Shown: positions 12,470 through 56,471 of the stretch, piece after piece
How positions within the stretch are numbered: position 1 is the stretch's first letter
Layout of the letters: every line of letters begins with the position of its first letter
Position numbers and translations under genes: made by a program
Assembly (NCBI GenBank): GCA_017428525.1
Contig: JAFRQQ010000020.1
Location: 59,535 to 123,534 of the forward strand
Reading direction: 5' to 3'
DNA length: 64,000 nucleotides
DNA from: Clostridia bacterium
GTDB taxonomy: Bacteria; Bacillota; Clostridia; Oscillospirales; Acutalibacteraceae
The notes under the pieces: generated by a model
What the model was told of the DNA's origin: nothing
Databases searched by the model: none
What the model saw: only the letters and a program-made list of their open reading frames with translations

Positions 12470-12500
12470 CGTATCAACCTTTCCTTTCCATCCGACAGAA

Positions 12501-25714: not shown

Positions 25715-25736
25715 GCCGGCATCTCCTCCTTCCTCC

Positions 25737-26348
25737 TCAATTGGACTGTGTTTCCGCCTCCTGCGCGGAGAAAAAGCTGCGCACCTGCACGCCCTGTGCG
25801 CTGTCGATCTGCTCCGCGTCCGGCTCCTGCACGGGCGGCTTTTCCGGCAGCTCCGGAAGATCGGCCAGCGAAGTCAGGCAGAAGCAGCGCAGAAACGCGG
25901 GCGTCGTGCCGTACAGCAGCGGACGGCCGGGCAGCTCGAGGCGGCCCTTTTCTTCGAGCAGGCCGCGCTGACAAAGCGTGGAAATCACGCCCGAGCAGTC
26001 CACGCCGCGAATCTGCTCGACATAGGCCTTGGTCACCGGCTGATTATATGCAACCACGGCGAGCACCTCAAAGGCGGCCGGTGAAAGCGGGGTATTCTTT
26101 TTGATATCCAGCACCGTGCGCACCTGCTGGGCATATTCGGTGCGGGAGCAGAGCTGATACTGCGCGCCGAGCCGCAGCAGACACACGCCGCTGCCGCGCT
26201 GATCGAGTGTTTCCGCAAGCAGCTGCATCGCCTGCTGCACCTGCGAAAGCTCGACCTCCAGCGCTTCCGCGATGCGGGCGGCTTCCAGCGGCTCTCCCGC
26301 CGCAAACAGGATCGCCTCGCACGCGGCGGATAATGCTTCATTCGTCAT
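25737..26348 (-). CDS. scpB: SMC-Scp complex subunit ScpB
   Basis: EAILFAAGEP, LSPAAFEVLAVVAYNQP, IRGVDC, GRPLLYGTT.FL. Confidence 0.95.
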   Translation of the reverse strand: MTNEALSAACEAILFAAGEPLEAARIAEALEVELSQVQQAMQLLAETLDQRGSGVCLLRLGAQYQLCSRTEYAQQVRTVLDIKKNTPLSPAAFEVLAVVAYNQPVTKAYVEQIRGVDCSGVISTLCQRGLLEEKGRLELPGRPLLYGTTPAFLRCFCLTSLADLPELPEKPPVQEPDAEQIDSAQGVQVRSFFSAQEAETQSN

Positions 26349-27072
26349 AATCGAGCTGCGCCTCCTCTCTGCCGTGCACCAACGTCACGGCGGCGTTTTC
26401 GCCTTCGCCCTCCACGGTGATGCGCTTGGCCTTGACCATGGCCAGCAGCGCAAGGAAGGTGGCGACCATTTCAGAGCGGGACGTCGACTGCTCAAAGAAC
26501 GCGTTGAACCGATGCCCGCCCGCCGATTTCAGCCGGTCGATGATCACCTGAAACCGCGAGGTCACGGAAACGATCTTGTGCGCGACGATGCCGCGAAACG
26601 CCTCCACCGGCGGCGGCAGCCTGCGCTGCCCCTTGCCGACCGCGGCAAGATAGGATTTGAAAATCAGAAACGGCTCATGAATGCGCGTATAGGTCAGATC
26701 GGCCTCGATCTTCTCCGGCGGGTGCTGATAATACTCAAACCCCTTTGCGCAGTCGTGGAGCTTGGCGGCCACGAGCTTGCAGTCCTGATACTCCGTCAGC
26801 TCGCCGCGCAGCTCCTCCACGAGCTTCTCCGCCTCCTCATGCACAGGCAGCAGCGACACGGTTTTGATATAAAGCAGCCGCGCCGCCATTTCGAGGAATT
26901 CACTGGAAACATCCAGATCCTCCTCCTGCATCTGCCGCACATAGGCCAGATACTGCTCGATGATTTCAAGGATCGGCACGTCGTTGATGCTGACCTTCTT
27001 TTTTCCGATCAGCTGGAGCAGAAGATCCATCGGGCCTTCAAAGACCTCCAGCTTATATTGCAGTTTTTCCAC
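26338..27072 (-). CDS. scpA: Segregation and condensation protein ScpA
   Basis: FEGPMDLLLQLI, EFLEMAARLLYIK, VATFLALL. Confidence 0.95.
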   Translation of the reverse strand: MEKLQYKLEVFEGPMDLLLQLIGKKKVSINDVPILEIIEQYLAYVRQMQEEDLDVSSEFLEMAARLLYIKTVSLLPVHEEAEKLVEELRGELTEYQDCKLVAAKLHDCAKGFEYYQHPPEKIEADLTYTRIHEPFLIFKSYLAAVGKGQRRLPPPVEAFRGIVAHKIVSVTSRFQVIIDRLKSAGGHRFNAFFEQSTSRSEMVATFLALLAMVKAKRITVEGEGENAAVTLVHGREEAQLDYDE

Positions 27073-27089
27073 AGAGATTCTCCAATGAT

Positions 27090-27785
27090 TTATGATAGAA
27101 ACGCGCGGAACGGCAGGCCGGTCAGCCAGTCGAAGCCGCTGAGCAGTTTCGTTGACAGGAAGGAGAGCGGCGCAGTCAGCCAGCCCATGAGCAGCAGCGC
27201 GAAGATCACAAGGCGGATATATCGCTCATACTGCATGATTTTGAAATACAGCTCCGTGGGCAGCACGAGCGAAACGACGCGCGAGCCATCCAGCGGCGGA
27301 ATCGGCAGCAGGTTGAACACAGCCAGGCTGACATTGACGGAGGCGGCAAAATAGAAGAACAGCTCCGTCACCTGCGCGACGATCGATCCGGTCTTCGCGA
27401 GCCACAGGTCCGCACCGTGGCGCAGAAACAGAAAGATCAGCGCCATGAGCAGATTGGAGGCCGGACCGGCGGCGGCCGTGATGGCCATGCCCGCCTTGGG
27501 ATTCTTGAATCTTCTCGGATTGACCGGCACGGGCTTTGCGTAGCCGAAGCCGACGAGGAAAATCATCAGCGCGCCGATCGGATCCAGATGCGCCAGGGGC
27601 GAAAGCGTCAGGCGGCCCTGCAGCCGCGCGGTGTCGTCGCCGAGCTTGTTTGCCGCCCAAGCGTGCGCGAATTCATGCACGGGCAGCGTGCAGAAGACGA
27701 CAAAGACGATCGCAAAAAAATTGATGATCATCGAGATGCCGGGCGTTTCGCCCCGCATCAGACTGCGGATCAGTTGTAAGAGCAT
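27090..27785 (-). CDS. Site-2 protease (M50) family protein
   Basis: HEFAH, LTLSPLAHLDPIG, AGPASN, FNLLPIPPLDG. Confidence 0.92.
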   Translation of the reverse strand: MLLQLIRSLMRGETPGISMIINFFAIVFVVFCTLPVHEFAHAWAANKLGDDTARLQGRLTLSPLAHLDPIGALMIFLVGFGYAKPVPVNPRRFKNPKAGMAITAAAGPASNLLMALIFLFLRHGADLWLAKTGSIVAQVTELFFYFAASVNVSLAVFNLLPIPPLDGSRVVSLVLPTELYFKIMQYERYIRLVIFALLLMGWLTAPLSFLSTKLLSGFDWLTGLPFRAFLS

Positions 27786-33440: not shown

Positions 33441-34712
33441 TCATTGCAGCTGCACGGAGGCGATATACTCTCCGTAGGACCAGTAATCCTCGCCGGTCAC
33501 GGTCACGGGCACCGCCACGGTACCGGTCGTGCCCTCCGGCACGGTGCTCAGATCCGCAACGAGTACGAGATCATCCAGGTTCAGTGTGTCCAGCGTTTCC
33601 GCGGGGCCGACCAGCGTGATCTCCTCAAAGTGGAGCGATTCCGTCTTCGCGGACATGCCGTCCGGCACATTCGGGAAATCCAGAGAGACCGGCGCTGCCA
33701 CCGTGACGGTTTTCATCCCGTCCGCCACAATGGTGACGGTGAATTTCTCCGGCCCGTTCACGACAATGCCGCCGGTCAGCTCGGAGGCTTTGATTTCAAT
33801 CACGTTGGTGCCGGCAGTCAGGCTGCTGAACGGAATCTTCGCGATCTCGAAGGAATCAATGCCGTCCAGACGGCTTTCGGACACGCCGAATTCCGCAGAC
33901 GCCGGCTCCACCGTCACGGTGAAGGGCAGCTGATCCACATAGGCGGAAGGCGTGCCGGAAAAGCTGACGGAAGCAGGCAGCTTCGCTTTCTTATAAACCG
34001 GCACGGTGATGTGCGCGACGTTGCTTGCGCGGTTGAAGGAAATATAATTCGGGACCGACCCGTCCCGCGTGACGGCCACAAGCGTTGCGTCAAGCGAAGT
34101 GTTTGCGGTCAGCGGGGCGTCGATGCTTGCGCGCGCCACAACGGAAGTGATCTTGCTGACCTCGGATTCCGGGCCGCTCACGCGCACGGTCGTGCTCTCA
34201 CCGTATACGAGCTCGCCCGCAATATAGCCCTCCGCCACGAGCGCATCTTCGGTCTGAAGATCCGCCGTCAGAGCAAATTCCTTCTCCTTTGGATAATCAA
34301 AGAAGACGTCCACGGACTGCAGCGACCAGCTGTCGATCGTATAGGCGGCGCGGTCGTTGCTGCTCTCAACCGTGATCGGCAGGCTGTAGGTGCCCACGGA
34401 ATTCACCTTGCCCGTATTCGCGGACACGACAAGCTCCTCGAGCAGCTCCTGCTCATTGTCGACGTTATAGCGTTTGCCGCTGACCTTGATATCCACGGTG
34501 TAGTTGCTGTTGCCGAAAGGCACGAGCCCGAAATTCTCCTGCAGGCGCGCGTAATCCACCTGCACGGGCACATTGGTCAGCGTGCGGGTGATGTCCGTGC
34601 TCTTTTCCACGGAAACAAACAGCCAGATCAGTATGGCCGCGATCAGGGAAAAGACCATCAGAAAGCGGTTGTTATTGAAAAGTTTACTCAGATTGAAATC
34701 TTTGATTCTCAT
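33441..34712 (-). CDS. cdaR: CdaR/YbbR-like regulator of diadenylate cyclase
   Basis: N-terminal TM helix (SLIAAILIWLFV), repeated YbbR-like beta domains (VRVSGPESEV); directly follows cdaA. Confidence 0.85.
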   Translation of the reverse strand: MRIKDFNLSKLFNNNRFLMVFSLIAAILIWLFVSVEKSTDITRTLTNVPVQVDYARLQENFGLVPFGNSNYTVDIKVSGKRYNVDNEQELLEELVVSANTGKVNSVGTYSLPITVESSNDRAAYTIDSWSLQSVDVFFDYPKEKEFALTADLQTEDALVAEGYIAGELVYGESTTVRVSGPESEVSKITSVVARASIDAPLTANTSLDATLVAVTRDGSVPNYISFNRASNVAHITVPVYKKAKLPASVSFSGTPSAYVDQLPFTVTVEPASAEFGVSESRLDGIDSFEIAKIPFSSLTAGTNVIEIKASELTGGIVVNGPEKFTVTIVADGMKTVTVAAPVSLDFPNVPDGMSAKTESLHFEEITLVGPAETLDTLNLDDLVLVADLSTVPEGTTGTVAVPVTVTGEDYWSYGEYIASVQLQ

Positions 34713-35593
34713 TTTTTGCTACCCTTTAAGCGCTTGAAGAATTTGCGTATCGCGCTTTCCCCTTCCTGGTCCTGGGCGTTGGATTCGATCATCGCGTTGA
34801 GCAAGTATTCGCGCAGGCTGGATTCCGTCAGATCCCGCAGCAGTCTGCCGCCCTCGGCAATGGAAATCGTTCCGGTTTCCTCCGACGTGACGACCACGAC
34901 CGCGTCGCTGACCTCGCTCAGGCCGACGGCCGCGCGATGCCGGGTGCCCAGATCGCTGCTGAGCTCCTCGCTGTGCGTGAGCGGCAGTACGCAGCCCGCG
35001 CAGACCAGACGGCTGTCGCGAATGATGGCCGCGCCGTCATGCAGCGGAGAATTCGGGAAAAACATATTGCCGAGCAGCTCATGCGTCACCACCGCGTCCA
35101 CGGGCGTGCCGGTGCGGCTCACGTCGCCGAGCGGCGTCTCCCGCTCCATTACGATCAGCGAGCCGATCTTGCTGTCGCTCATGCGCTGCACGGCCTTGGC
35201 GATTTCAATGATCGCGTCCTGCTCCGTTTCAATTTGCAGCGCGTCGGCGCCCTTGAGCAGATTCGCCAGACCGGACACGCGGTTTTTGCCGAGATGCTCG
35301 ATGATCTTGCGGATTTCCTGCTGGAAAATGATCACGAGGATAATGAAAATATTCTTGAACACAACCTGGAACAGATAGGAGCTTGCCTGCATGCCGATAA
35401 TATAGACAACCGCATAGATCAGCGCAAGCAGAAGCAGGCCCTTCACGAGCTGGAACGCCCGCGTTTCGCGAATGAGCTTGATGCCCTGATAAATCACAAA
35501 CGCCACGAGCAGGATATCCAGCACATCGTACCAGGCAAAGCTCAACGAAAGCACTTTAGCAAAAAAATCCGAAATATTCTCAAGAAATGGCAT
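34709..35593 (-). CDS. cdaA: Diadenylate cyclase CdaA
   Basis: Three TM helices, FQQEIR, PLHDGA, GTRHRAA, VTSEETG. Confidence 0.95.
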   Translation of the reverse strand: MPFLENISDFFAKVLSLSFAWYDVLDILLVAFVIYQGIKLIRETRAFQLVKGLLLLALIYAVVYIIGMQASSYLFQVVFKNIFIILVIIFQQEIRKIIEHLGKNRVSGLANLLKGADALQIETEQDAIIEIAKAVQRMSDSKIGSLIVMERETPLGDVSRTGTPVDAVVTHELLGNMFFPNSPLHDGAAIIRDSRLVCAGCVLPLTHSEELSSDLGTRHRAAVGLSEVSDAVVVVTSEETGTISIAEGGRLLRDLTESSLREYLLNAMIESNAQDQEGESAIRKFFKRLKGSKK

Positions 35594-35639
35594 CGTCTCA
35601 GACCGCCCTTTTCGTAATAATCCAAACCGTTTGAATTCA

Positions 35640-35668
35640 ATTATAGCAGAATCGAAGTGCACTTGCAA
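35640..35668 (-). promoter_or_regulatory. sigmaA-type promoter for cdaA-cdaR
   Basis: Minus strand TTGCAA-N17-TATAAT with an extended TG. Confidence 0.6.
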
Positions 35669-43621: not shown

Positions 43622-43640
43622 AATGATCCTTCCTCCTTGA

Positions 43641-43870
43641 TAAAAAAGGTGCAGTTCACCATTCGGCATGGGACGGCCGAAGCCGCGGTACCACCCAAAT
43701 TGCGCAAACTGCACCACTCAATTCTCCTTAACGCAGAGGCACGCCGCCGCTCGCCGCGGCGGGACCGGGAATTTCCCGGGAAGGGGGCCGTTTCGCGCCG
43801 GCACACCGAACGGCTCTTGCAGCCTGGAAGCCGTCTCTCTGCCGGGTTCGGCGCGAAATCATCCTTCAGA
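43641..43870 (-). promoter_or_regulatory. T-box riboswitch leader of alaS
   Basis: Minus strand T-box TGGGTGGTACCGCGG (43683-43697) folds as the antiterminator ggg-TGGTACC-gcgg/ccgt-ccc. Stem I has AGAGA and GCTG motifs; a U-tract precedes the RBS. Confidence 0.85.
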
Positions 43871-43896
43871 ATTCGCTGTATTCAATTGCGCAGGAT

Positions 43897-46044
43897 TCAG
43901 CCGACGTCTTCTTCGGCTTCCTCCGCCTGCGTCGTCGTGTCGGTATCCGTCACCTTTTCGAGCTTGCTCTTGGCAACATACGCGGTCTGGCCGTCATACT
44001 CGAACTTCGCCCAGTCGTTGCCGTTGTCCGCGGTTTCAAAGCCGAGCACTTCGATCTCGTCGCCGTAATCCAGCTCGCCGAGCCATTCATTCTCAACGCC
44101 CGCGCCGTCGCGGATATTCGCGCCGTTGTAGTCGCTGACCTGATACTTCTCGCCCTTCGTCGCGCCGTTGCCGCTCGGGGTGGAAACATCCGCGTTGTTG
44201 TCCTGAATATCCATATTCACGCCGGAGAAGGTGTTCTGCGCGTTGCCGACCAGAATCACACCCCAGGTGCCGGCCTTGCAGGCGATGAACACGCCGTCCT
44301 TGCCGGGCAGGATGTTGCTGTATTCAAAATTGACAACCGTGTTGTTCTTCAGGTCGATGATGCCCATCATGCCGCCCTTCTTGACAGCGATCAGGCCGCC
44401 GGTCACCGGACGGCAGAAATCGCAGCAGGAGGACTCATAGCTGGCGGACATTTCGTTGACCTGCTCGTATTCATAAGGAATGACCTTCTTGCCCTTTTCG
44501 TTGACATAGCCCCATTTGCCGTCTTTTCTGGCGGCGGCGTAGCCCTCGAAATAGCGGTCGCGCTCATCGTAGGAAGCGGTTTCCAGCTTGTCGCCGTCCA
44601 CGGTATGCGCGGCATGCGGCGAATTGGCGATTTTCACGTTGCCGTTGGCTTCCACGGTGAAATCATACTTGTCACCGCCCATGACGACCAGGCTGTGATA
44701 GCTGGGCGTCGAGCGGGAAGCGTCATACTCTCTGCCGTAGCCGCAGCGCACGAAATCCTCATAGCGCGGCTGAATGACGACCTTGCCCTGATAATCCATC
44801 AGACCCCACTGGCCCGAGGAAGCGGACTTGAACTTGCAGTAATTCTCATCGAGATACTGAATCTCCGTGCAGTCGGAGAATCCGCCCGGTTTCCAGGTGA
44901 AGGTGCTGTCAAGCACGGCGGTCTTGCCGGCCTGCGTCGTCACGTCGGTGCCGGATTTTTCTTTATGACGGTTCACGGCCTTGCCGATGCCCACGCACAG
45001 CAGGATCAGCAGCAGCAGCGCGATCGCCGCCGTCGCGATGGCTTTCAGATTCAGGCCCTTGGGCAGCTGGATCTTGCCGCCGCGCTTGCCCGACGACACG
45101 GGCTCGTCCGTTTCATCGGGAAGATCGAGCTTGAACGGCGCTTCGTCCGGCTCGGGAATGCTGAACGGCGCAGGCTCGACCGAAACGGGAGGCATCTCGG
45201 GCATCGCAGGCATTTCCGGCTGCGGCGCAGAGGCCTGCACGGAAGCGTCCGGCAGCACGGGCGCGCCGGATTCCAGCGATTCATGAATGCGCTGCTTGAA
45301 ATACTGAGCGCTGTCGGGATCGGTCGCCGCCACCGGCACGGCGTTGGCAGCCTTGGCCATCTGATACTTCTCAAACGCATCCTTTGCGTAAATGAAGATG
45401 TCGCGCACGTCGGAGGTCACGACCGTCATCCCGGCGCAAAGGCGCTGGAACAGCTGGGTCAGCACGGGCAGACCGCCCGCGGGCTCCACTGCGGAGGTCG
45501 GCGCGCCGGTCGCTTCCACAACCTGCGCACAGCCGGCGGACAGGAGCGCGTTCGCCGTGGTGTCGGAAACGCCGAGGAATCTGCTCAGCGCCTGCACGGG
45601 CATGCCGTTGTTGTAATGCAGCACCAGCGCGGTGCGCAGCTCCGGCTTGAGCGCGGCAACCGCATTCAAAACCGCGTCGCCCATAGCCGGATCCTCCAGC
45701 ACGGACGCATCAAGGAACTCGGCCGTGACGGGCATCGCGGCGCCGTCGGCCTCGTTGAAGACAAAGTTTTTGCTGTCTTTATATGCGCCTGCCACATTCT
45801 GCTTCATCCAGATCTCGAAGGCCTCGGGTCGTTTCAGACGATCCAGATTGCAGAAGGCCTTGGCATACGCCTGCTTGACAATCTCGGCCGGCGACTCATC
45901 CGCATCGCACAGACGGGTCGCAAGGAAATACGCGCCCTTCAGCGTTTTGGCGTAGAGCTTGCCCATTGCATCGGTATCCCCTGCTGCAGCGGCGGTGACA
46001 TAAGGAACAAGATTTTCACTCAAGACAAGATTCACTCCCATCAA
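43897..46044 (-). CDS. Fusion protein: ECF sigma-like domain + Pro-rich linker + TM helix + WG repeats + SH3b
   Basis: Region-2-like GDTDAMGKLY/AEIVKQAYAKAF/FEIWMK; region-4-like LKPELRTALVLHYNNGMPVQALSRFLGVS; TM IATAAIALLLLILLCVGIG; WG repeats WGLMDYQGKVVIQP and WGYVNEKGKKVIP; SH3b ANIRDGAG..DWAKFEYDGQTAYV. The true start may be TTG 46023. Confidence 0.8.
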   Translation of the reverse strand: MMGVNLVLSENLVPYVTAAAAGDTDAMGKLYAKTLKGAYFLATRLCDADESPAEIVKQAYAKAFCNLDRLKRPEAFEIWMKQNVAGAYKDSKNFVFNEADGAAMPVTAEFLDASVLEDPAMGDAVLNAVAALKPELRTALVLHYNNGMPVQALSRFLGVSDTTANALLSAGCAQVVEATGAPTSAVEPAGGLPVLTQLFQRLCAGMTVVTSDVRDIFIYAKDAFEKYQMAKAANAVPVAATDPDSAQYFKQRIHESLESGAPVLPDASVQASAPQPEMPAMPEMPPVSVEPAPFSIPEPDEAPFKLDLPDETDEPVSSGKRGGKIQLPKGLNLKAIATAAIALLLLILLCVGIGKAVNRHKEKSGTDVTTQAGKTAVLDSTFTWKPGGFSDCTEIQYLDENYCKFKSASSGQWGLMDYQGKVVIQPRYEDFVRCGYGREYDASRSTPSYHSLVVMGGDKYDFTVEANGNVKIANSPHAAHTVDGDKLETASYDERDRYFEGYAAARKDGKWGYVNEKGKKVIPYEYEQVNEMSASYESSCCDFCRPVTGGLIAVKKGGMMGIIDLKNNTVVNFEYSNILPGKDGVFIACKAGTWGVILVGNAQNTFSGVNMDIQDNNADVSTPSGNGATKGEKYQVSDYNGANIRDGAGVENEWLGELDYGDEIEVLGFETADNGNDWAKFEYDGQTAYVAKSKLEKVTDTDTTTQAEEAEEDVG

Positions 46045-46047
46045 CAG

Positions 46048-46117
46048 ATTATAGAACAGAATTCGACCATTCGACAGTATTATTACCTATTCTATCCCAC
46101 ATTTAGCGATTTGTCAA
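46048..46117 (-). promoter_or_regulatory. sigmaA promoter(s) with tandem Spo0A boxes
   Basis: Minus strand TTGACA(46117-46112)-N17-TAGAAT(46094-46089), then TGTCGAA(46076-46070) and GGTCGAA(46068-46062), then a second TATAAT (46053-46048). Confidence 0.6.
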
Positions 46118-46173
46118 GAGTGATTTATCAATATCTTGTTACTGAATTGTTTCAATCTTATTAAAATTGTCCG

Positions 46174-46887
46174 TTACGGCAGGCGGATCTCGCGTTTGAT
46201 TTTCTCGATGATCCGTTTTTCCAGCCGTGAAATATAGCTCTGCGAAATGCCGAGCGCGTCCGCCACTTCCTTCTGCGTATACTCCCGTCCCCCGCCGATG
46301 CCGAAGCGCATGGTCATGATCCGCTGTTCGCGCGCATCCAGCGACGCCACGGCACGGTAAAGCCGCCTGCGCTCGTCGTCGCTCTCGAGATCCCGGTAGA
46401 CCTCGTCCGCCTCGCTGCCGAGGATATCCGAAAGCAGCAGCTCGTTGCCGTCCCAGTCGACATTCAGCGGTTCAAAATAGGAAACCTCCGCTTTGAGCGC
46501 GTTCGTTTTGCGCAGATACATCAGGATTTCATTGTCGATGCAGCGCGAGGCGTAGGTCGCGAGCTTGATGTTTCTCGCGCGGCAGAACGTATTGACCGCC
46601 TTGATCAGGCCGAGCGTGCCGATGGAGATCAGATCCTCGATCGGAATGCCGGTGTTTTCGAATTTCTTCGCGATGTAAACGACCAGCCGCAGGTTATGCA
46701 CGATCAGCTTCTCCCGCGCTGCGTCGTCCCCCTGCTCCAGCTTTTCAAGGCAGACCTGCTCCTCCTCCTTCGGCAGCGGCGGCGGCAGGGTATCCGGCCC
46801 GTTGATATAGTCAATCTCTGCGGCAAACAGCTGCGCGCGGATCTTCGCGAGCAGCAGCATCCATAGATTGCGCGTCTTTTTTGACAT
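46174..46887 (-). CDS. sigE: Sporulation sigma factor pro-SigE
   Basis: Amphipathic pro-sequence, [62 protein letters not shown]; follows spoIIGA. Confidence 0.95.
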
Positions 46888-47755
46888 GCTTCCCAACTCC
46901 TTTTCTGCGCGTTTCATGCATCCCTTCCTCAAGAAAAGCCGGACCGAACAGCGCGGCATAGCCGCCCGCGATCAGGCGGCGGTCCGTCACCGCCACGGTC
47001 GGACGAAGCACGGTCATCCCCCGGTCGCCGACGTCCAGCGTGACCGCGTCCGCCGTGAACGCCCGCAGCAGCCCGCTGCCGCCGACAGAGGAAAACGGGA
47101 CGCATCGAAAGCCGCGCATCTCCGAAAGATCGCCGCTTGCCGGCAGCAGCGGCCGCACAAAGTCGCGCTCGGCCAGCAGCACGGGCTTCGCGCTGAAGCC
47201 GTCCCGCAGCGTGCTGCCGGTATCCAGCAGCGCCTTGCCGGAAACGGTCCGCTCCCCGACCCGGATTGACACCGCATAAACCGTGCGCGGCGGTCGGCCG
47301 CTGCGCAGAAACCGGCCGAGGAGCGTAAGCACCGCATAGCAGCCGACGGACAGCAGCGTGAGGGTCAGCAGGTCCAGCTCGACGTAAGTCACGCCGTTGC
47401 GCTGAATCAGTCCGTGCGGGGAGAACAGCACCCGGACGGCGAGCATCGCGCCGGCGAAAAAGCCGTTTGCAAGCAGGAACGCCGCGCACCGTTTCAGATA
47501 GAGCCGCCGTGCGCCGTAGCCGAAGGCCGAGAGCACCATGACCGCCGCGAACGCGAGCTCCATGGGCACGAGCACCCATGCCGGCAGACGGTCCAGAAAA
47601 ATCACGAGCGCGTACACGCCGCCGAGCGCTGCCGCGCCGAGCTGCCGCAGCACGCGTCCCCCGCCGCCGGTCAGCGCCGCGGCCGCACGAAGCAGAAAGT
47701 AATTGACGATCAGATTCACGATCACAAGCACATCAGCATAAATCACGGTGTGCAA
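46811..47755 (-). CDS. spoIIGA: Pro-sigmaE processing aspartic protease SpoIIGA
   Basis: TTG start [23 protein letters not shown] helices, catalytic LLDTGS, PFSSVGG. This frame is the 3' end of the track ORF 46811..49756, which is mislabelled '+'. Confidence 0.9.
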
Positions 47756-47794
47756 AGAACCGTCTCCCTCCTGCCGCTGTTTCTTTTCGTTCCA

Positions 47795-47828
47795 ATTATA
47801 ATCGGTACACGCTGGATTTTTTGTCGCA
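47795..47828 (-). promoter_or_regulatory. spoIIG promoter: -10 TATAAT with a 0A-like box at the -35 position
   Basis: Minus strand TGCGACA (reverse 0A box, 1 mismatch) lies 21 nt upstream of TATAAT; no canonical -35 at 17 bp. Confidence 0.5.
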
Positions 47829-47855
47829 AGCAGGCCGGGAAATGAAACTTTTCTA

Positions 47856-47884
47856 TTGAATAAACGCGGGAAATAGTATATAAT
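47856..47884 (+). promoter_or_regulatory. sigmaA-type promoter for the SGNH operon
   Basis: TTGAAT-N17-TATAAT. Confidence 0.6.
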
Positions 47885-47917
47885 GATTGTATCTATATTG
47901 AAATGAGGCGATTTTGT

Positions 47918-48526
47918 ATGCGCATTCTCTTTCAGGGCGATTCGATTACGGACGCCGGCCGGGACCGCAGCGATCCGCACGAGCTCGGGCAGGGCTATCC
48001 GCTGTACGCGGCGGGCTTCCTGTGCAAGGACCATCCGGAAACGGCCTTTGAATTCCTGAATCTCGGCATCAGCGGCGACCAGACAAAGCAGCTGGTCGAG
48101 CGCCTGCAGGCGGATTTCATCGACGTTGATCCGGATATCGTTTCGATCCATATCGGCATCAACGACACCTGGCACCGCGCCGAAACGCGTGACTGGCTGC
48201 CGGACGACGTGTTTGAAGCGCAGTACCGCACGGTGCTGGAAGCCATGAAGAATCAGACCCGCGCAAAGATCCTGATCATCGAGCAGTTTCTGCTTCCGAT
48301 GGAGGACAAGGCCTTCTTCCGTGAGGATCTCAACGGCAAAATCGACATCACCCGCAAGCTCGCGCGGGAATATGCGGACGCTTATCTGCCACTGGACGGC
48401 CTGCTGGCAAAGGCCTGCGTCGGGCAGAGCCCCTATCACTGGTCGGCGGACGGCGTGCATCCGAATGACAACGGCTCCGCTTTCATCGGCCGCCTGTGCG
48501 CCGACGCGATCGCCGAGCTGCTTTAA
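47918..48526 (+). CDS. SGNH/GDSL family esterase
   Basis: GDSITD, NLGISG, IGIND, DGVHP. Confidence 0.92.
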   Translation: MRILFQGDSITDAGRDRSDPHELGQGYPLYAAGFLCKDHPETAFEFLNLGISGDQTKQLVERLQADFIDVDPDIVSIHIGINDTWHRAETRDWLPDDVFEAQYRTVLEAMKNQTRAKILIIEQFLLPMEDKAFFREDLNGKIDITRKLAREYADAYLPLDGLLAKACVGQSPYHWSADGVHPNDNGSAFIGRLCADAIAELL

Positions 48527-48538
48527 GGAACGGTAGCT

Positions 48539-49615
48539 ATGAAAAAAACACTGAAAAGCATTCTCAATTACATCTTCATTGACGGCCTGAGCGGCATGGC
48601 GCTGGGCCTGTTTTCCACGCTGATCATCGGCACGATCCTCGATCAGATCGCGTCCTTCCTGCCCGGCACGCCCGGCGTGTGGCTGCACGCGGCGGCCATG
48701 GTCGCCAAATCGATCACGGGCGCGGGCATCGGCGTGGGCATGGCGTTCAAATTCAAATCCGCACCACTGGTCGGCGCTTCCGCCGCCGTGGCCGGCATGG
48801 TCGGCGCCTTCGCGGCAAAGCTCCTGTCCGGCGCGGTGATTGACGGCTCCGCGCTGACCTACGGCGGGCCGGGCGACCCGCTCGGCGCGTTTCTGGCCGC
48901 CCTGAGCGCAACCGCGATCGGCAAGCTCGTCAGCGGAAAAACCAAGCTGGATATTCTGATCACGCCGGCCGTGTGCGTGTGCGTGGGCAGCGCGGTCGGT
49001 CTGTTTGCCGGTCCCCCCGCCTCCCGCTTCTCCACGTGGATGGGCGAAATCATCCGCTGGGGCACGGAGCGTCAGCCGATCCTGATGGGCGTCATCGTGG
49101 CGGTCGTCATGGGCATCTGCCTGACGCTGCCGATCAGCTCCGCGGCGCTTGGGATCATTCTGGATCTTTCCGGCATCGCCGGCGGCGCGGCCGTCGTCGG
49201 CTGCAGCACGCAGATGATCGGCTTTGCCGTTGCGAGCTATCGTGAAAACAAGCTCGGCGGTCTGCTCGCGCAGGGCGTGGGCACCTCGATGCTGCAAATG
49301 CCGAATATCGTTCGCCGGCCGCAGATCTGGCTGCCGCCGATCCTCGCGAGCGCCATTCTCGGCCCCATTTCGACGCGCGTGCTGGGCATGACCTGCTATG
49401 CCTCCGGCGCCGGCATGGGCACCTCGGGTCTGGTCGGTCAGTTCATGACCTACGCCTCCATGACGGACGCGGGCGCCGACCCGAAGAAAGTGCTGCTTGA
49501 AATCCTGCTGCTTCATGTGCTCGCCCCCGCGGCGCTCACACTCCTCTTCTCGGAGCTGATGCGCAAGCTCGGCTGGATCAAGGAGGGCGACATGAAGCTC
49601 GGGGATCTGCAATGA
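48539..49615 (+). CDS. PTS IIC-like membrane protein (PTS_EIIC_2 family, orphan)
   Basis: DGLSGMALGLFSTLIIG, LPISSAA, GTSMLQMPNI, AGMGTSGLVG; about 10 TM helices. Confidence 0.85.
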   Translation: MKKTLKSILNYIFIDGLSGMALGLFSTLIIGTILDQIASFLPGTPGVWLHAAAMVAKSITGAGIGVGMAFKFKSAPLVGASAAVAGMVGAFAAKLLSGAVIDGSALTYGGPGDPLGAFLAALSATAIGKLVSGKTKLDILITPAVCVCVGSAVGLFAGPPASRFSTWMGEIIRWGTERQPILMGVIVAVVMGICLTLPISSAALGIILDLSGIAGGAAVVGCSTQMIGFAVASYRENKLGGLLAQGVGTSMLQMPNIVRRPQIWLPPILASAILGPISTRVLGMTCYASGAGMGTSGLVGQFMTYASMTDAGADPKKVLLEILLLHVLAPAALTLLFSELMRKLGWIKEGDMKLGDLQ

Positions 49616-49649
49616 TTCCGTACATAAATGAAAAAAGGAGATTGAAACC

Positions 49650-51257
49650 ATGAAAAAACGCTTGATCGCCGCTGTGCTGGCGATTGCCGTTTTCTGTACG
49701 GCGTTCGCCCTGCCCGCCTTCGGCGCAACCGACGAAACCTCGCCGTTTGAGCGCAAGCTTTATCCCGCGCTGGACAAGCTGATTTACGGGCTCGTGGACG
49801 GCATCGCCGCCATGATCGTCACCCCGCGCAGCTGGGTGAACGCTTCGGATTACAGCAACGACGCCTTCCTGCCCGGCCTTGACGCAGCGGACTTCCTCGA
49901 CGCGCCCGCGGAGAACGCGCAGTGGTCGCTCGGCTATGCGAACGCCTCCATCCAGACCGGCAAGGAGCTCACGGAAGAGCATTATGTCGGCGGCAGCCTG
50001 AAAGTGTCCAAGAAGCTCGTCACCGAAGTGCGCGACGATCAGAAGGTGCGCACCGTCGCCGTTTCGGACGGGCGCGGCATTTCCGTTTTCGCCTGCGTGG
50101 ACAGCTTCGGCATGCCCGGCACGGCGGTGGATGAGATCCGCACGCGCTTTGAGAAAATCGCTGCGGAAAAGGGCTATGACATCACCGCCGTCAACGTCTC
50201 CGCACTGCATCAGCATTCGTGCGTTGACACCTTCGGCATGAACGGCGATATTGTCAGCGCGCTGTTTACCTCCTCCTTCAAAAACCTGCTCGGGCAGCCG
50301 ATGTACGGCGGGCAGAATCCGGACTTCATGGAGAACCTCTATACCGTCGCCGTGCAGTCCATGGTGGACGCGGTCGAGGATATGCAGCCCGGCAAGCTCT
50401 ATTACGGCGCTGTGAACGCGCGGGACTATATGCGCGACAAGCGCGACCCGCAGGTCGTCGACCCGAATCTGAACCGGCTGCGCTTCGTGCCGGATGACGC
50501 CGACGCGCGTGAAACCTGGATCGTCAACGCCGGCATCCACTGCGTGGGCATGGGCGCGGGCGGCACGGTCGTGACCGGCGACTACCCCTATTTTATGGAA
50601 GAGTATCTGAACGACAACGCGAACGCCAATCTGTTCTATATCCTCGGCGCGCAGCTGGCCATCACCAGCACGAGCGACGCCATCACGGAGACAGACGAGG
50701 CGCTCGCGGCGGAATATGACGAAAGCTACGCGCGGCTTGCCGTTTACGGCCGGACGCTTGCGCGCCTGCTCTGCTCGATCACGGAGGAATCCGAGGTTGC
50801 GCCGATCCTGAATATCCGCTTCACGCAGGCCCGCGTGGACGTGGAAAACAGCATCCTGAAGCTGGCCGGCAAGGGCGGTCTGCTGAAAAACCGCGTGATC
50901 CGCTCCGGCATCGGCAAGTATCAGGTGGCAACGGAGGTCGGCTATGCGGAATTCGGCACGGATCTCGCAATCGCGCTCATGCCCGGCGAGCTGGCGCCGG
51001 AGATTGCCTTCGGCGGCGCGGACACGGCAGCTGAAAGCTGGACGGGCACGGAATGGGCCTATGCGCCTCTGGCCGAGCGCGTCGACGGCCGGAAGCTACT
51101 GGTCTTCGGTCTGACCAACGATCAGGTCGGCTATCTGCTGCCCGACAACGAGTGGCATTCCTTCCTGACAGAAAATGAAGAAATCGTCTCCTGCGGCAAG
51201 CAGGCCGGCGCAACGATCACGGCCGCCTTCTTCAGCCTGCTGGAGGAAATCAACTGA
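49650..51257 (+). CDS. Secreted protein with neutral/alkaline ceramidase-like fold
   Basis: Signal peptide; RTVAVSDG, ACVDSFG, SALHQHSCVDT (cf. THTHSGP), GIHC, TGDYP, PGELAPE, GLTNDQVGY. Confidence 0.6.
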   Translation: MKKRLIAAVLAIAVFCTAFALPAFGATDETSPFERKLYPALDKLIYGLVDGIAAMIVTPRSWVNASDYSNDAFLPGLDAADFLDAPAENAQWSLGYANASIQTGKELTEEHYVGGSLKVSKKLVTEVRDDQKVRTVAVSDGRGISVFACVDSFGMPGTAVDEIRTRFEKIAAEKGYDITAVNVSALHQHSCVDTFGMNGDIVSALFTSSFKNLLGQPMYGGQNPDFMENLYTVAVQSMVDAVEDMQPGKLYYGAVNARDYMRDKRDPQVVDPNLNRLRFVPDDADARETWIVNAGIHCVGMGAGGTVVTGDYPYFMEEYLNDNANANLFYILGAQLAITSTSDAITETDEALAAEYDESYARLAVYGRTLARLLCSITEESEVAPILNIRFTQARVDVENSILKLAGKGGLLKNRVIRSGIGKYQVATEVGYAEFGTDLAIALMPGELAPEIAFGGADTAAESWTGTEWAYAPLAERVDGRKLLVFGLTNDQVGYLLPDNEWHSFLTENEEIVSCGKQAGATITAAFFSLLEEIN

Positions 51258-51275
51258 TCAACGGACGGTGAACCT

Positions 51276-52478
51276 ATGGGCAGAATCAAAAATGCCTTCA
51301 AAGAAACGGACTTTCTCCTCTATCTTCTCTGCATCCTGACCTCCGCCTTCGGCGCGCTGATGGTTTACAGCGCCACGCGCAACGACGCCATCGCCGCCGG
51401 AGAGCCGATGGGCCGGGAATGCCTGATTATGATCCTCGCGGCCGGCGTCGGCATCGTGGCCTGCCTCGTGATCTCCTTCTTTGATTATACCGCCGTTGTC
51501 CGGATGTGGCCGATCATCGGCGGCGTGTGCCTGCTGCTGCTCGGGCTGCTCTTTATTTTCGGTGAAGGTCCCTCCGACCGGCCGAACGCCCGCTGCTGGC
51601 TGCCGGTCATCAAATCCAGCGCGATCACCGTGTATTTCCAGCCGTCGGAGCTGGCAAAGATCGGCTTTCTCGTTACCTTCACGGCGCATATCAACGCGGT
51701 AAAAAACGACATCAACCGCGTGCGCAACATCCTGCTGCTTACGCTCCATGTGCTCGTGCCCATGGGCATCATCATCCTGACCGACGACCTCGGCTCCGCG
51801 CTGATCTTCGGCTTCATGTTCATCGGCATGATGTTCGTTTCGGGCGTCAAGCTCCGGTATTTCGCCATCGCCATCGGCTCCATCCTCGCGCTCGCGCCCC
51901 TGCTGTGGGTCAAATTCCTCTCCAATTTCCACCGGCAGCGCATCCTGGCGATTTATTACCCCTCCGCGCTGAATGAAACCGTATATAAAAACATTATTTA
52001 TCAGCAGCAGCGCGCGCTCAACGCCATCGGCTCGGGCCGGCTGTTCGGCGACGGGCTGTTTCAGGGCACATATACGCAGTCCGCGACGGGCGTGCCGGTC
52101 AATGAAAGCGACATGGTGTTTTCCGTTGTGGGCGAGGAGCTGGGCTTTGTCGGCTGCTTCCTGCTGCTGGCCGTGCTCGCGCTGATCCTGCTGCGCATCA
52201 CCTCCAACGGCAAGAAATCCCGGAATCTCACCGGCAGTCTGCTCTGCTACGGCACGGCGTTTATGATCGGCTCGCAGATCATCATCAACATCGGCATGTG
52301 CCTGATGCTGCTGCCGAGCGTCGGCATCACGCTGCCCTTCATCAGCGCCGGCGGATCCTCCAACCTGTGCATTTATCTGGCGATCGGTCTGGTGATGAGC
52401 GTTTACCGCTTCAACTGCGACCGCGAGCCGACGAATTTCCGCCTGACGCACATGAGCACCCCGTTTGCCGAAACTTAA
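51276..52478 (+). CDS. SEDS family protein (RodA/FtsW/SpoVE)
   Basis: FQPSELAKI, DDLGSA, YQQQRALNAIGSG, ESDMVFSVVGEELG, GITLPFISAGGSS. Confidence 0.92.
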   Translation: MGRIKNAFKETDFLLYLLCILTSAFGALMVYSATRNDAIAAGEPMGRECLIMILAAGVGIVACLVISFFDYTAVVRMWPIIGGVCLLLLGLLFIFGEGPSDRPNARCWLPVIKSSAITVYFQPSELAKIGFLVTFTAHINAVKNDINRVRNILLLTLHVLVPMGIIILTDDLGSALIFGFMFIGMMFVSGVKLRYFAIAIGSILALAPLLWVKFLSNFHRQRILAIYYPSALNETVYKNIIYQQQRALNAIGSGRLFGDGLFQGTYTQSATGVPVNESDMVFSVVGEELGFVGCFLLLAVLALILLRITSNGKKSRNLTGSLLCYGTAFMIGSQIIINIGMCLMLLPSVGITLPFISAGGSSNLCIYLAIGLVMSVYRFNCDREPTNFRLTHMSTPFAET

Positions 52479-53895: not shown

Positions 53896-55923
53896 TCAAA
53901 GCGTCACGGAGCCGATCAGTCTGCTGCCCGTGAGCTCAAACGCGCAGATCTTTTCGCCGGAGATCGTGTAGAACGCATCGCCGATCACGGCGCCGTAGAC
54001 TGCGGCGTCACCCAGATAATTCCGGGCGTGGTTGTAAGTGCCCTTCGGCTTGATCGCGCCGTCGGAGACGGTAAACAGCAGATAGCTGGAAACTTCCGCG
54101 CCGCTGGCTTCGTTCTGCGTGATGACCGGCAGGCCGAACAGCGCACGCTCCGGGATCACGGTCACGCGGGGGCTGCCGGCAGCGTCGGTCAGGATCTGCG
54201 CGCCGCTGAGCTGATAGGGCGTGCCGAAGGCGGGCGCGTCGGGATCGCTCAGATCGATGGGCGTGAGCACCGTCTCACCGGTTTTCGTCGCGTAGAAGCC
54301 GATCATCTGCGTCGGAGAAATCTCATAGGCCGTCTGCACATTCGCGGGCGTCTCCACACTGCCGGACTGCTTGAGATGCGCGGGATCGGTCAGATCAATG
54401 ACCGCAATCTTTTTCTCATTGATGAAATAGCAGCGGCTTGCGCCGAACCACGCGCGATCCGCGGGCTGACCGCCCGGCTGCACCTGCAGGCTGTCAACGC
54501 ATTCCATGCTGTCATTCAGGCAGTACAGCACGGAGCTGCCGTCCTGACAAGCGGCCGCATAAAGCTTGCCGCCGAGCGCGGCGGGCGCGGCGATCAGCCT
54601 GCCCTGCAGCACGAACGCACCGGTAAAACTGACGGCCCGGTCTGTGAGCACAAAGCGGTAAAGTGCCGTGCGCACCTGACCGTCGTTCTCCCCTGCCGCC
54701 TGCACAAAGCTGCGCGTGACGTAAAACGCGTTTTCGGCGGCCTGCACCTGACTGCCGCAGCCGAGCACCGCAAGCACGGAATCCGGCTTGAAGGGCGAAG
54801 CGAGCGCGGTTTCGGAGATGAACAGGTAGGACGCCTCCGGATCGTTGATCGCCATGCAGACGTCCTCTGCCTGCGGGCGGAAGACGTTGCCGTCCACCGT
54901 CAGCTGCGGCAGATCGCCGTTTTCGCCGGCGGAGAGATTGTTGAGGGCTTTGCAGGTGACCAGCCGGAGCTTGCCGCCCCGCAGGTCGGAGAATACATAG
55001 CTGCCTTCCTGCGCCGCCGCGCAAAGACGCACGGGCGACGTCGGGTCGCTGATATCGTAATAAACCGCAACGGTCTGCGTATGATCCACTGCCGCGTTTT
55101 CCGTGAGTGTGTAGGCATAACGGTGCAGCAGGGCGATCATCCGGTTGCCGCTGACAAACAGGTCGAAGCATTCCTCATCCGCGTCGCCGCTGCTGCCGTC
55201 CGTGAGCGTGACGGTCGCGGCCACCTGCATCTGATCGGCGGGCGCGGCGCTGATGATCCGGATCTGCTCGATCGGCATGCCGGTCGCGGGATTGATGCCG
55301 GGCGTGACGACATAGAGGTAATTTCCGCTGCTTTTCACGATGTCGGCCGCGGTCGTATCCGTGGGATTGACCGTCGCGGAGGACCCGGCGGACAGGCTTT
55401 CGGACGGGACCGCGACGAAGCCTTCAAGCAGCTTGAGCCCGGCGTCCAGCAGCGGAGAGATCACATTCTCGCCGCGCTTTACCGTCGGCGCAGGCGCGGT
55501 TTCCGCGCCGGGTTTCTTCGGATCGGGCGCAACAATCCCGGTCGCGCTTGTCGCCTGATCTTTGTTATTCAGAATGTCGCGCACGGCCTGATCGAGCTCC
55601 TCCGCGTTCTTGGCGTTCTTGATCAGCGGCGAATTGCCGGAGGATGCGTGGTTGATCTGCTGGACCGATTGCCCGCGATAAAGGAACGCGCCGGTGACGA
55701 TCAGCGCGATCATGGCGACCATCGCCAGCGCGCGGCGCACGGACGCCGTCCGGTCCGTATGCGGCAGACGGATCAGATTCGAATTCTCTGTTTGATTGTC
55801 CGCATCCTTGAGGATGTCGACAATTGCGTCGGGCTGCAGACGCGCCGGCACTTCCAGCTTTTCCAGATCGCTGTGCAGCAACGCTTCGATGCGCCTCTGC
55901 ATTTCCTGATCTTTCTGATTCAT
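53896..55923 (-). CDS. Putative anti-sigma factor with extracellular beta-propeller domain
   Basis: Short cytoplasmic N-terminus, TM helix ALAMVAMIALIVTGAFLY, ADIVKSSGNYLYVV motif of the secreted beta-propeller family; 2 bp downstream of an ECF sigma. Confidence 0.7.
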   Translation of the reverse strand: MNQKDQEMQRRIEALLHSDLEKLEVPARLQPDAIVDILKDADNQTENSNLIRLPHTDRTASVRRALAMVAMIALIVTGAFLYRGQSVQQINHASSGNSPLIKNAKNAEELDQAVRDILNNKDQATSATGIVAPDPKKPGAETAPAPTVKRGENVISPLLDAGLKLLEGFVAVPSESLSAGSSATVNPTDTTAADIVKSSGNYLYVVTPGINPATGMPIEQIRIISAAPADQMQVAATVTLTDGSSGDADEECFDLFVSGNRMIALLHRYAYTLTENAAVDHTQTVAVYYDISDPTSPVRLCAAAQEGSYVFSDLRGGKLRLVTCKALNNLSAGENGDLPQLTVDGNVFRPQAEDVCMAINDPEASYLFISETALASPFKPDSVLAVLGCGSQVQAAENAFYVTRSFVQAAGENDGQVRTALYRFVLTDRAVSFTGAFVLQGRLIAAPAALGGKLYAAACQDGSSVLYCLNDSMECVDSLQVQPGGQPADRAWFGASRCYFINEKKIAVIDLTDPAHLKQSGSVETPANVQTAYEISPTQMIGFYATKTGETVLTPIDLSDPDAPAFGTPYQLSGAQILTDAAGSPRVTVIPERALFGLPVITQNEASGAEVSSYLLFTVSDGAIKPKGTYNHARNYLGDAAVYGAVIGDAFYTISGEKICAFELTGSRLIGSVTL

Positions 55924-55925
55924 CT

Positions 55926-56471
55926 TCAGCCCTCCTCTCCGAATACATCGCCGCCCAGGGCGAAGCGTAATTTTTTGAATGCGCGCGCCTGCTTGGAGCG
56001 CACGGTCGTCGGCAGCAGACCGAGGATCGATGCGATCTCATGGCTCTTGTAGCCGCCGAACACATGGAGCAGAATGATCTCCCGCTCGTCGTTTGCAAGC
56101 CCAGCCAGCGCCATGCGCAGCTCCACCGACAAAGCGGCGTCATCGACAACGCCGACGGTATAATCCGTCTCCGGATCGTCGAGCGATACCGTCGCCGCGC
56201 TGCTGCGCGCCTGCGTATACTGGCGCTTGCAGCTCGCGGAAAGAATGCGGAACATCCAGCTTTTGAAGGCGTCCGCCTTTTTCAGCCCGCCGATCTGCTT
56301 GAACGCGGAAAGCACCGCGTCGGACACCGCGTCCTGCGCCCGGTCGTCATTGCCGACCATATAGCGCGCGTAGGCATACATTTCTTTATAATAGAAGCTG
56401 TACAAGCGGCCGAAGGCGTCAGCGTCGCCGCGCTGTGCCATGGCAACAAGCTCCGTGATTTGCGCGTCCAC
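55926..56471 (-). CDS. ECF RNA polymerase sigma factor
   Basis: GDADAFGRLY, AQDAVSDAVLSAF, FKSWMFRI, REIILLHVFGGYKSHEIASILG..TTVRSKQARA. Confidence 0.93.
   Translation of the reverse strand: MDAQITELVAMAQRGDADAFGRLYSFYYKEMYAYARYMVGNDDRAQDAVSDAVLSAFKQIGGLKKADAFKSWMFRILSASCKRQYTQARSSAATVSLDDPETDYTVGVVDDAALSVELRMALAGLANDEREIILLHVFGGYKSHEIASILGLLPTTVRSKQARAFKKLRFALGGDVFGEEG

Follow-up and report, generated by a model that had tools for sequence, protein, structure and literature searches.

What does a sigma-factor fold do at the cytoplasmic end of a wall-facing membrane protein when the residues that would contact RNA polymerase (RNAP) and promoter DNA have been exchanged? The question is raised by one gene in a 64,000-nucleotide stretch of DNA from a Clostridia bacterium of the Acutalibacteraceae (contig JAFRQQ010000020.1), referred to here as the window. 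In a single polypeptide the gene encodes a sigma domain of the extracytoplasmic function (ECF) type, a transmembrane segment and an extracytoplasmic domain composed of WG repeats and an SH3b domain. The reading that we favor, tentatively, is a one-component envelope sensor in which the sigma fold has become a pseudo-sigma: a conserved module for protein interactions, linking the signal to a cytoplasmic partner. To our knowledge few such ECFs have been studied, and none in Firmicutes with a membrane-spanning extension.

An initial annotation, made from the sequence itself, had placed one open reading frame (ORF) at 43897..46044, and this stretch is indeed a single intact ORF on the minus strand, of 715 aa if counted from the first in-frame TTG. 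Another in-frame TTG, at 46023, coincides exactly with the start of the orthologous proteins, which open with (M/V)SEN and almost always use GTG; a ribosome-binding site (RBS), GGGAGTG (46039-46033), lies nine bases ahead of this TTG. We therefore take TTG 46023 as the likely start of a product of 708 rather than 715 aa, beginning MSENLVPYV. Residues are numbered on the 715-aa form unless 708-aa numbering is stated. The parts of the gene are as follows.

43897..46023, minus strand: coding sequence, 708 aa plus stop, likely start TTG 46023
45760..46005, minus strand: Sigma2-like domain, aa 14-95 (whole-length NCBIfam models, AlphaFold/Foldseek, profile search)
45676..45759, minus strand: sigma2-sigma4 linker with a conserved EFL(P/D) motif (alignments; the motif is common to canonical relatives, the out-group introduced below)
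45517..45675, minus strand: Sigma4-like domain, aa 124-176 (Pfam Sigma70_r4_2, column statistics, SigE alignment)
45271..45465, minus strand: post-sigma4 cytoplasmic helices (AlphaFold confidence, pLDDT, and conserved motifs)
45046..45270, minus strand: disordered Pro/Glu-rich linker, aa 259-333 (pLDDT <50; 16 of 75 residues Pro)
44980..45045, minus strand: lone transmembrane helix, aa 334-355 (Kyte-Doolittle 19-residue mean 2.9)
44245..44898, minus strand: WG-repeat beta domain, aa about 383-600 (Pfam WG_beta_rep)
43966..44124, minus strand: C-terminal SH3b domain, aa 641-693 (Pfam SH3_3, 33.3 bits)

That such a protein arose through a frameshift or misassembly fusing a sigma gene to a wall-protein gene has a negligible probability. 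At least 192 homologues were found, and the 120 listed (E-values 0 to 1e-178) are all about 700 aa long and come from many independent assemblies. All three Pfam domains are carried by 116 of these 120, and the 32 homologues that were aligned are collinear along their entire length. The window's protein is collinear with the aligned homologues and 93% identical to one of them (P0001, 714 aa). Four DNA runs contain every sampled word of the region (100%). A misassembly was rejected on the strength of these runs and of the homologues of about 700 aa in independent assemblies. The gene, with a third-position GC content (GC3) of 0.78, codes for a membrane protein that is real and is conserved among gut Clostridia not yet in culture. 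A genome scan recovered the family at 74 distinct loci, all in metagenome-assembled genomes (MAGs); the loci that could be named to family belong mostly to Acutalibacteraceae, and the legible source names are rumen or gut. The family is apparently a single-copy, syntenic core gene of a rumen and gut clade of Acutalibacteraceae.

The N-terminal part has the fold of an ECF sigma factor. Counting Pfam matches above Pfam's own cut-offs, Sigma70_r4_2 matches aa 124-173 with 30.1 bits. Sigma70_r2, which the initial annotation had proposed to search together with Sigma70_r4_2, WG_beta_rep and SH3_3, matches neither the window protein nor any of the 120 listed homologues; the other three do match. Because Pfam is silent on sigma2, this domain was established from NCBIfam models, a profile search of the PDB and the predicted fold. 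The whole-length ECF model TIGR02954 spans aa 14-175 (1.8e-11, far under the model's own cut-off), and a profile of the family matches Mycobacterium tuberculosis SigE and Bacillus subtilis SigW over both domains (8e-6). With the single sequence as query, the sigma matches in the PDB were only marginal (E about 0.1). AlphaFold predicts the cytoplasmic part with pLDDT >90 over about residues 10-230 and a pTM of 0.69, using a 66-sequence alignment, and the top Foldseek matches of the model in the PDB are ECF sigmas (1or7, 5wuq, 4cxf). The layout is that of a two-domain ECF (group 4 sigma-70 factor), sigma2-linker-sigma4, without sigma3 or sigma1.1. The ECF-like N-terminus and sigma-like fold posited in the initial annotation are borne out by these searches.

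The nearest relatives outside the family are also tethered to the membrane. When 1.84 billion cluster representatives were searched by HMMER for aa 8-260, 30 of them, at E <1e-30, made up the family proper; beyond it lie hundreds of proteins, 300-1100 aa long, whose match is confined to the first 170-240 residues, with 25-34% identity. Members of this out-group carry the ids P0153-P0269. Sigma70_r2 is present in 62 of 70 out-group proteins scanned with Pfam, and Sigma70_r4_2 in 68 of 70. In 88 of 117, a simple hydropathy scan placed a single transmembrane segment near aa 250-300; another 12 had two calls, which mostly overlap. Their C-termini are diverse and include BspA-type LRR_5, zinc ribbons, WG repeats, ankyrin and transglutaminase domains, among others. 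Out-group and family have in common the EFLP linker motif and, after sigma4, a 'P-V/I-L' helix with another helix behind it. Just one of 20 out-group clusters had an informative name (MBQ9973826.1, 'sigma-70 family RNA polymerase sigma factor', Oscillospiraceae), and one further cluster was named 'hypothetical protein'. Judged by these sequences, membrane-tethered ECFs with an on-board extension are common in metagenomic protein space, though unnamed, and the family studied here is a derived branch descended from canonical tethered ECFs.

What sets this branch apart is the replacement of contact residues. Column statistics were computed over 66 family, 23 intermediate and 114 out-group members. 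In region 2.2 the out-group reads D86%-x-x-Q83%-(E/D)86%, and the family (E/D)-I-T-K95%-K81%, so that the canonical D-x-x-Q-(E/D) pattern is absent; the window protein has A-E-I-V-K-Q-A-Y. In the recognition helix of region 4.2 the out-group reads T-V-K78%-S71%-R75%-L...R88%...(K/R)77%, and the family T-A-N100%-A93%-L100%-L...R92%...L83%. The helix-turn-helix of the window protein, S-D-T-T-A-N-A-L-L-S-A-G-C, contains no basic residue, and TTANALLSAGCAQVV is devoid of them as well, in place of the basic -35 helix T-V-K/R-S-R-L..R..K/R. The same pattern emerges from a HMMER alignment to the solved structure of M. tuberculosis SigE, in which DLTQE lies opposite EITKK, and GTVRSRIHRGR opposite STANALLGKAR. 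The helix of region 2.4, after the conserved Trp, is four residues shorter than in canonical relatives and has lost its terminal basic cluster. In the subclade of the window protein (LLSAGCAQ) K163 and R165 are additionally lost, leaving the helix without a basic residue. These statistics put figures on the degeneracy that the initial annotation had noticed, and the motifs it quoted (EIVKQ, TTANALLSAG, and TVRSKQARA from the ECF at 55926) are all correct. Some out-group recognition helices are degenerate too, for example those of P0157, P0160, P0167 and P0185.

The Q and E/D of region 2.2 are central to binding of the beta-prime clamp helices, as known from region 2.2 mutants of sigma-70 and sigma-32. 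Judging from the residues alone, a Lys-Lys pair at this place should weaken the clamp-helix contact. With the usual residues for RNAP and DNA contact gone, the protein probably signals by an unconventional route. Of the two mechanisms offered in the initial annotation, a proteolytically released sigma and a DNA-blind pseudo-sigma acting as an RNAP decoy or scaffold, neither is shown here; the substitution pattern favors the DNA-blind pseudo-sigma, and the RNAP decoy loses likelihood, since the motif for core binding has changed too and its charge is reversed. On sequence grounds, the charge-reversed motif points to a protein-protein module that would be held by cis helices or would decoy an anti-sigma.

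A genuine one-component ECF, tethered and kept closed by its own extension, freed to bind RNAP by site-1/site-2 proteolysis upon a wall-derived signal, and recognizing an unusual -35/-10 code that the family-specific residues (T-A-N-A-L-L and others) would define, is a possible though doubtful alternative. It would account for the full, strongly conserved sigma2-linker-sigma4 fold, for the canonical-looking tethered ECFs among the nearest relatives, and for the retention of the L3-type loop, the Trp and the EFLP linker; T156 and N158, which are invariant in the family, could still contact bases. It also has precedents in IutY, which is released by Prc and RseP, and in ECF48/52/53, for which the same is predicted (PMC8999054), and the genome contains an M50 peptidase. 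These points must be set against a charge-reversed acidic position in region 2.2 (K81%), a -35 helix lacking three to four basic residues, with none left in the window's subclade, and the shortened region 2.4 helix.

The sigma-like domains might instead be a leftover that serves as the cytoplasmic anchor of a mainly structural, enzymatically silent wall protein. WG repeats and SH3b domains are typical wall-associated modules, and the gene often adjoins a gene of the FtsW/RodA/SpoVE family. A leftover would drift, however, and the mean pairwise identity among distant members is highest in precisely these domains (sigma2-like 0.77, sigma4-like 0.75), followed by the WG domain (0.71), SH3b (0.63), the cis helices (0.61) and the linker (0.26). 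The sigma-like domains also contain many invariant surface-type residues, and the promoter and leader of the gene are tightly conserved. We regard a structural role as improbable. As the best-conserved segments of the protein, the sigma-like domains carry substitutions that, on this sequence comparison, are fixed and do not reflect decay.

How might a pseudo-sigma be controlled? After sigma4 the protein has helices at aa 194-205 (LPVLTQLFQ), aa 210-234 (VRDIFIYAKDAFEKY) and aa 246-258 (FKQRI). In 708-aa numbering AlphaFold places them at 187-198, 203-227 and 239-251, with disorder thereafter; the first two have a pLDDT of 96-97, the third one of about 78. Their motifs are kept within the family and recognizable in the out-group. 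The model makes them candidate cis-inhibitory, anti-sigma-like elements. The best global Foldseek superpositions are with ECFs bound to anti-sigma factors (SigW/RsiW, TMt 0.69; CnrH/CnrY, 0.64; RpoE/NepR, 0.59), compared with a TMt of only 0.28-0.39 for RNAP-bound ECFs, and the compact predicted arrangement fits a self-inhibited closed unit. The linker that follows, 16 of whose 75 residues are Pro, differs in length and sequence between orthologues. No other segment of the protein has transmembrane-like hydropathy besides aa 334-355, in agreement with the Pro/Glu-rich linker and single membrane helix described in the initial annotation. The N-terminus would face the cytoplasm, with the WG repeats and SH3b domain outside.

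The ectodomain consists of two parts. WG_beta_rep matches five stretches, with 73.1 bits; the initial annotation was right about the presence of both domains and had counted three to four repeats. AlphaFold models the WG domain entirely as beta-hairpin repeats with pLDDT about 90, in which Cys392, Cys434 and Cys544 are invariant, and shows the SH3b domain as a separate unit after it. In Foldseek the WG part gave merely weak, propeller-like matches (TM score about 0.2), so that no ligand can be read from them. The SH3b domain matched 9ovi (TMt 0.79) and 2kt8 (0.69), and its PDB sequence match is 2kq8, a cell wall hydrolase. The ectodomain may bind peptidoglycan or a wall-derived ligand.

The pseudo-sigma reading thus takes the following form. 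A single-pass protein with its N-terminus inside would have descended from ECFs of the fused sigma/anti-sigma type. The conserved post-sigma4 helices would pack against the sigma domains to form a closed unit, and the WG-repeat and SH3b ectodomain would contact the cell wall outside. A wall signal could open the cis helices, trigger proteolytic release (site-1/site-2, as in IutY, RsiV and RsgI), or both, and the opened or freed sigma-like module would relay the envelope signal to a cytoplasmic partner by protein contact. The family probably reports on the state of the envelope in never-cultured organisms. A stricter form, in which the ECF fold has been re-used in Firmicutes as a membrane-anchored protein-interaction switch, for example a PhyR-like decoy, and never acts as a sigma factor, appears possible and rather doubtful.

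PhyR is a soluble sigma mimic of Alphaproteobacteria, an anti-anti-sigma with a receiver domain that is controlled by phosphorylation and has NepR as its partner. Its sigma2/sigma4-like fold no longer serves promoter or core functions, is kept closed by an intramolecular partner and gives its output through protein-protein binding. By analogy, a freed sigma-like domain of the present protein might capture the anti-sigma of another ECF and so switch on that regulon. This transmembrane counterpart of PhyR, which is one form of the pseudo-sigma reading and shares in its probability, is unlikely. Its logic matches what is seen here, a fold of the sigma2/sigma4 type with altered DNA and core contact residues and a putative intramolecular closure, and PhyR-NepR complexes appear at Foldseek ranks 35, 36 and 42. 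The window even contains a canonical ECF with an adjoining 675-aa Beta_propel protein (53896-56471). Those PhyR matches are far weaker than the matches to true ECFs, however, and of the hallmarks of PhyR the protein has the degenerate sigma-like domain without the receiver domain (Pfam) or a linked NepR-type partner: the loci L001, L003, L078 and L079 have no linked gene for a NepR-like or other partner. Analogy would be its sole footing, the likeness to PhyR being one of function only.

Several observations weigh against the pseudo-sigma reading as a whole: (i) No partner protein came to light in the analysis. (ii) Most family members keep K163 and R165. (iii) The pre-Trp loop KKPEAFEIW and the linker motif, both features of a working sigma, are retained; we take this loop to be the one that forms the -10 base pocket in ECFs. 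(iv) Canonical ECFs vary at the Q position too, the window's own ECF having D-A-V-S-D. (v) The presumed loss of core and DNA binding is read from residue identities alone. (vi) Between sigma4 and the transmembrane helix there is neither a Pfam anti-sigma match nor an HxxxCxxC motif. (vii) The compact arrangement of the model may reflect a general bias of AlphaFold for isolated ECFs. (viii) All carriers are uncultured MAGs, and statements on the family's function derive from sequences and models.

Proteins of related design are known, and the literature agrees with the initial annotation that ECFs with transmembrane extensions come mainly from other phyla (PMC8999054, PMC5826349). The closest in plan is IutY of Pseudomonas putida (ECF243), a sigma/anti-sigma hybrid (PMC8999054, PMC5411451) and the only transmembrane-extended ECF shown to be activated by proteolysis (PMC8999054). 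Like the present protein, it unites in one polypeptide an ECF domain at the N-terminus, an inhibitory segment in the cytoplasm (a candidate one here), a single transmembrane helix and an extracytoplasmic sensor, and its activation is regulated proteolysis by Prc and RseP. The sigma domain of IutY is canonical and its anti-sigma part of the FecR type, and it works with a TonB-dependent receptor in the envelope of a Gram-negative bacterium; the family studied here, in contrast, has degenerate sigma residues, no known anti-sigma domain that could be detected, and a WG and SH3b sensor in a Gram-positive-type Clostridium. The actinobacterial groups ECF48, ECF52 and ECF53, for example SCO4117 of Streptomyces coelicolor (PMC5826349, PMC8999054), likewise add to an ECF domain a C-terminal extension that contains a transmembrane segment, is Pro-rich in part and carries an extracellular domain for binding carbohydrate or wall, and proteolytic activation has been proposed for them. 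Their anti-sigma domain is a zinc finger of the ZAS type and their sigma motifs are canonical; in our family neither was recognized.

The pairs RsgI/SigI and RsiV/SigV offer a different parallel, a single-pass sensor with an extracellular domain that binds polysaccharide or wall-related ligands and signals to sigma by intramembrane proteolysis (PMC10328401, PMC6066255). In these pairs, unlike here, the sigma factor is a protein apart from its sensor, which has an anti-sigma domain and not a sigma fold on its cytoplasmic side. The out-group ECFs share with the family the EFLP motif, the post-sigma4 helices and the single transmembrane helix, and some have WG repeats as well, but they mostly keep D-x-x-Q-E/D, T-V-K-S-R-L and a Pfam r2 match, which the family does not. 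Searches of the literature for WG repeats with sigma factors, or for membrane-tethered sigma or pseudo-sigma proteins, returned nothing on the family, and the main text of ECF classification 2.0 lists no Firmicutes group with a single-transmembrane WG/SH3b extension (10.1101/2019.12.11.873521). Retrieval for that classification required Pfam matches for both sigma2 and sigma4 and excluded failures (10.1101/2019.12.11.873521); the present family would have been missed because it fails the Sigma70_r2 filter.

Fused sigma/anti-sigma proteins and sigma mimics are thus already known kinds. What is new here is the Firmicutes host, the WG/SH3b sensor, the lack of a recognizable anti-sigma domain and the conserved degenerate sigma module. 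Single-pass tethered ECF-like proteins are abundant in metagenomes, unnamed in databases and not described in the literature searched, and a sigma fold that is under strong purifying selection while its RNAP and DNA contact residues are replaced provides a natural test case for re-purposing. If the sigma part is active, it would imply a new promoter-recognition code; if it is inactive as a sigma, it would represent a new class of sigma mimic; and a pseudo-sigma switch, if true, would extend sigma mimics beyond Alphaproteobacteria for the first time and give the first example tethered to the membrane.

The control region of the gene, with a strong promoter of its own, also bears on its function. 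Two elements lie upstream of the coding sequence.

46089..46117, minus strand: sigma-A-type promoter, TTGACA, 17 nt, TAGAAT (consensus scan, 11/12 matches)
46024..46082, minus strand: 5' leader with RBS (read from sequence)

Upstream of most of about 60 orthologues (45-50% protein identity) the block cTTGACAAATCACCAAATrTrGTATAAAAT is near-invariant, spacer included. Further conserved parts are the CAATATcTTGACAtAATATTG element, portions of the leader, and the RBS block with its non-ATG start; the leaders share the GATTGGAGTGGA block and begin translation at GTG, or TTG in the window. Positive autoregulation is typical of ECFs. Inspection of the upstream alignments by eye, with no scan for the motif, showed no GAAC..CGTC ECF-type element, and given a promoter of the sigma-A type as well, there is no sign of autoregulation. 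Copies of the promoter block were sought in the window and in about 1 Mb of related loci, where only the gene's own copy was found. The sigma-A-type promoter, the lack of a visible ECF-type element and the lack of a second copy of any of the conserved upstream motifs in about 1 Mb of flanking DNA all speak against a genuine ECF.

Seen by itself, the spacer AATCACCAAATrTrGTA is near-invariant in most orthologues, beyond plain sigma-A needs (window 46085-46160, minus strand). The conserved block sits about 90-130 nt upstream of orthologous starts (loci L001-L077), and the palindromic CAATATcTTGACAtAATATTG lies about 30 nt farther upstream. As sequence features, the conserved spacer and the palindrome suggest an operator for some regulator, or tandem promoters.

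The gene is transcribed in vivo, being covered by low-depth contigs in four gut metatranscriptomes. Two of these contigs, from two runs, have an end at 46062-46064, some 20 nt away from where transcription is predicted to begin. No metatranscriptome contig matches the adjacent sigE gene past an 18-nt stretch. The signal is weak but consistent with independent, vegetative expression in vivo. Downstream, a spacer of about 275 nt (43622-43896, minus strand) separates the gene from the likely start of alaS, and metatranscriptome contigs at 43628-43917 and 43736-43981 cross it, which suggests read-through or an unclassified leader. Rfam gave no match in the window, with no T-box ahead of alaS.

Gene order was compared between the window and L001, L003, L078 and L079. 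In L001 and L003 the order is an ftsW/rodA/spoVE-family gene, the target, alaS, HIT, a phosphoribosyltransferase gene, comEC and holA, with spoIIGA-sigE about 7 kb upstream on the opposite strand. In the window and L079 a block is inverted compared with most relatives, bringing sigE directly upstream of the target; in the window this block (46174-52478) contains spoIIGA-sigE, a GDSL lipase, PTS_EIIC_2, a 535-aa protein and an ftsW/spoVE-family gene. L078 represents a third variant, with an opposite-strand PHP-domain gene immediately upstream of the target and alaS after it. Target-alaS is the sole constant link in the five arrangements. Membership of the target in a sigE operon was considered and rejected, as the adjacency is one of several inversion variants and the target has its own promoter. 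In Bacillus and Clostridium sigG usually follows sigE; none was seen among the window ORFs scanned.

Elsewhere in the window, the canonical ECF at 55926-56471 (minus strand) has 181 aa and matches Pfam r2, r4_2 and Sigma70_ECF. It directly precedes the gene for the 675-aa Beta_propel protein, which is probably its membrane anti-sigma.

The M50 peptidase, which the initial annotation had called a site-2 protease and linked to release of the sigma domain, is present at 27090-27785 (minus strand; 231 aa, 60 bits), with Peptidase_M50 as the sole match and no PDZ domain. It is unlinked to the target and was rejected as evidence for proteolytic release, since the cluster that contains it is unrelated and 16 kb distant. 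The peptidase gene is directly upstream of putative scpA/scpB (assigned by reading, not scanned) and a gene for a DUF2953 protein (25025-27785).

Two further loci of the window concern signaling. Within 10277-13229 (minus strand) there is a PASTA-domain Ser/Thr kinase of the PrkC type (744 aa, Pfam). It adjoins an ORF whose unscanned sequence resembles that of a PP2C-type phosphatase, and together the two would be another wall-sensing signaling pair in the window. A CdaA-type cyclase and a YbbR protein form the usual module for synthesis of cyclic diadenosine monophosphate (c-di-AMP). At 33441-35668 (minus strand) a CdaA-type diadenylate cyclase (DAC, CdaA_N) is followed by a YbbR-domain protein.

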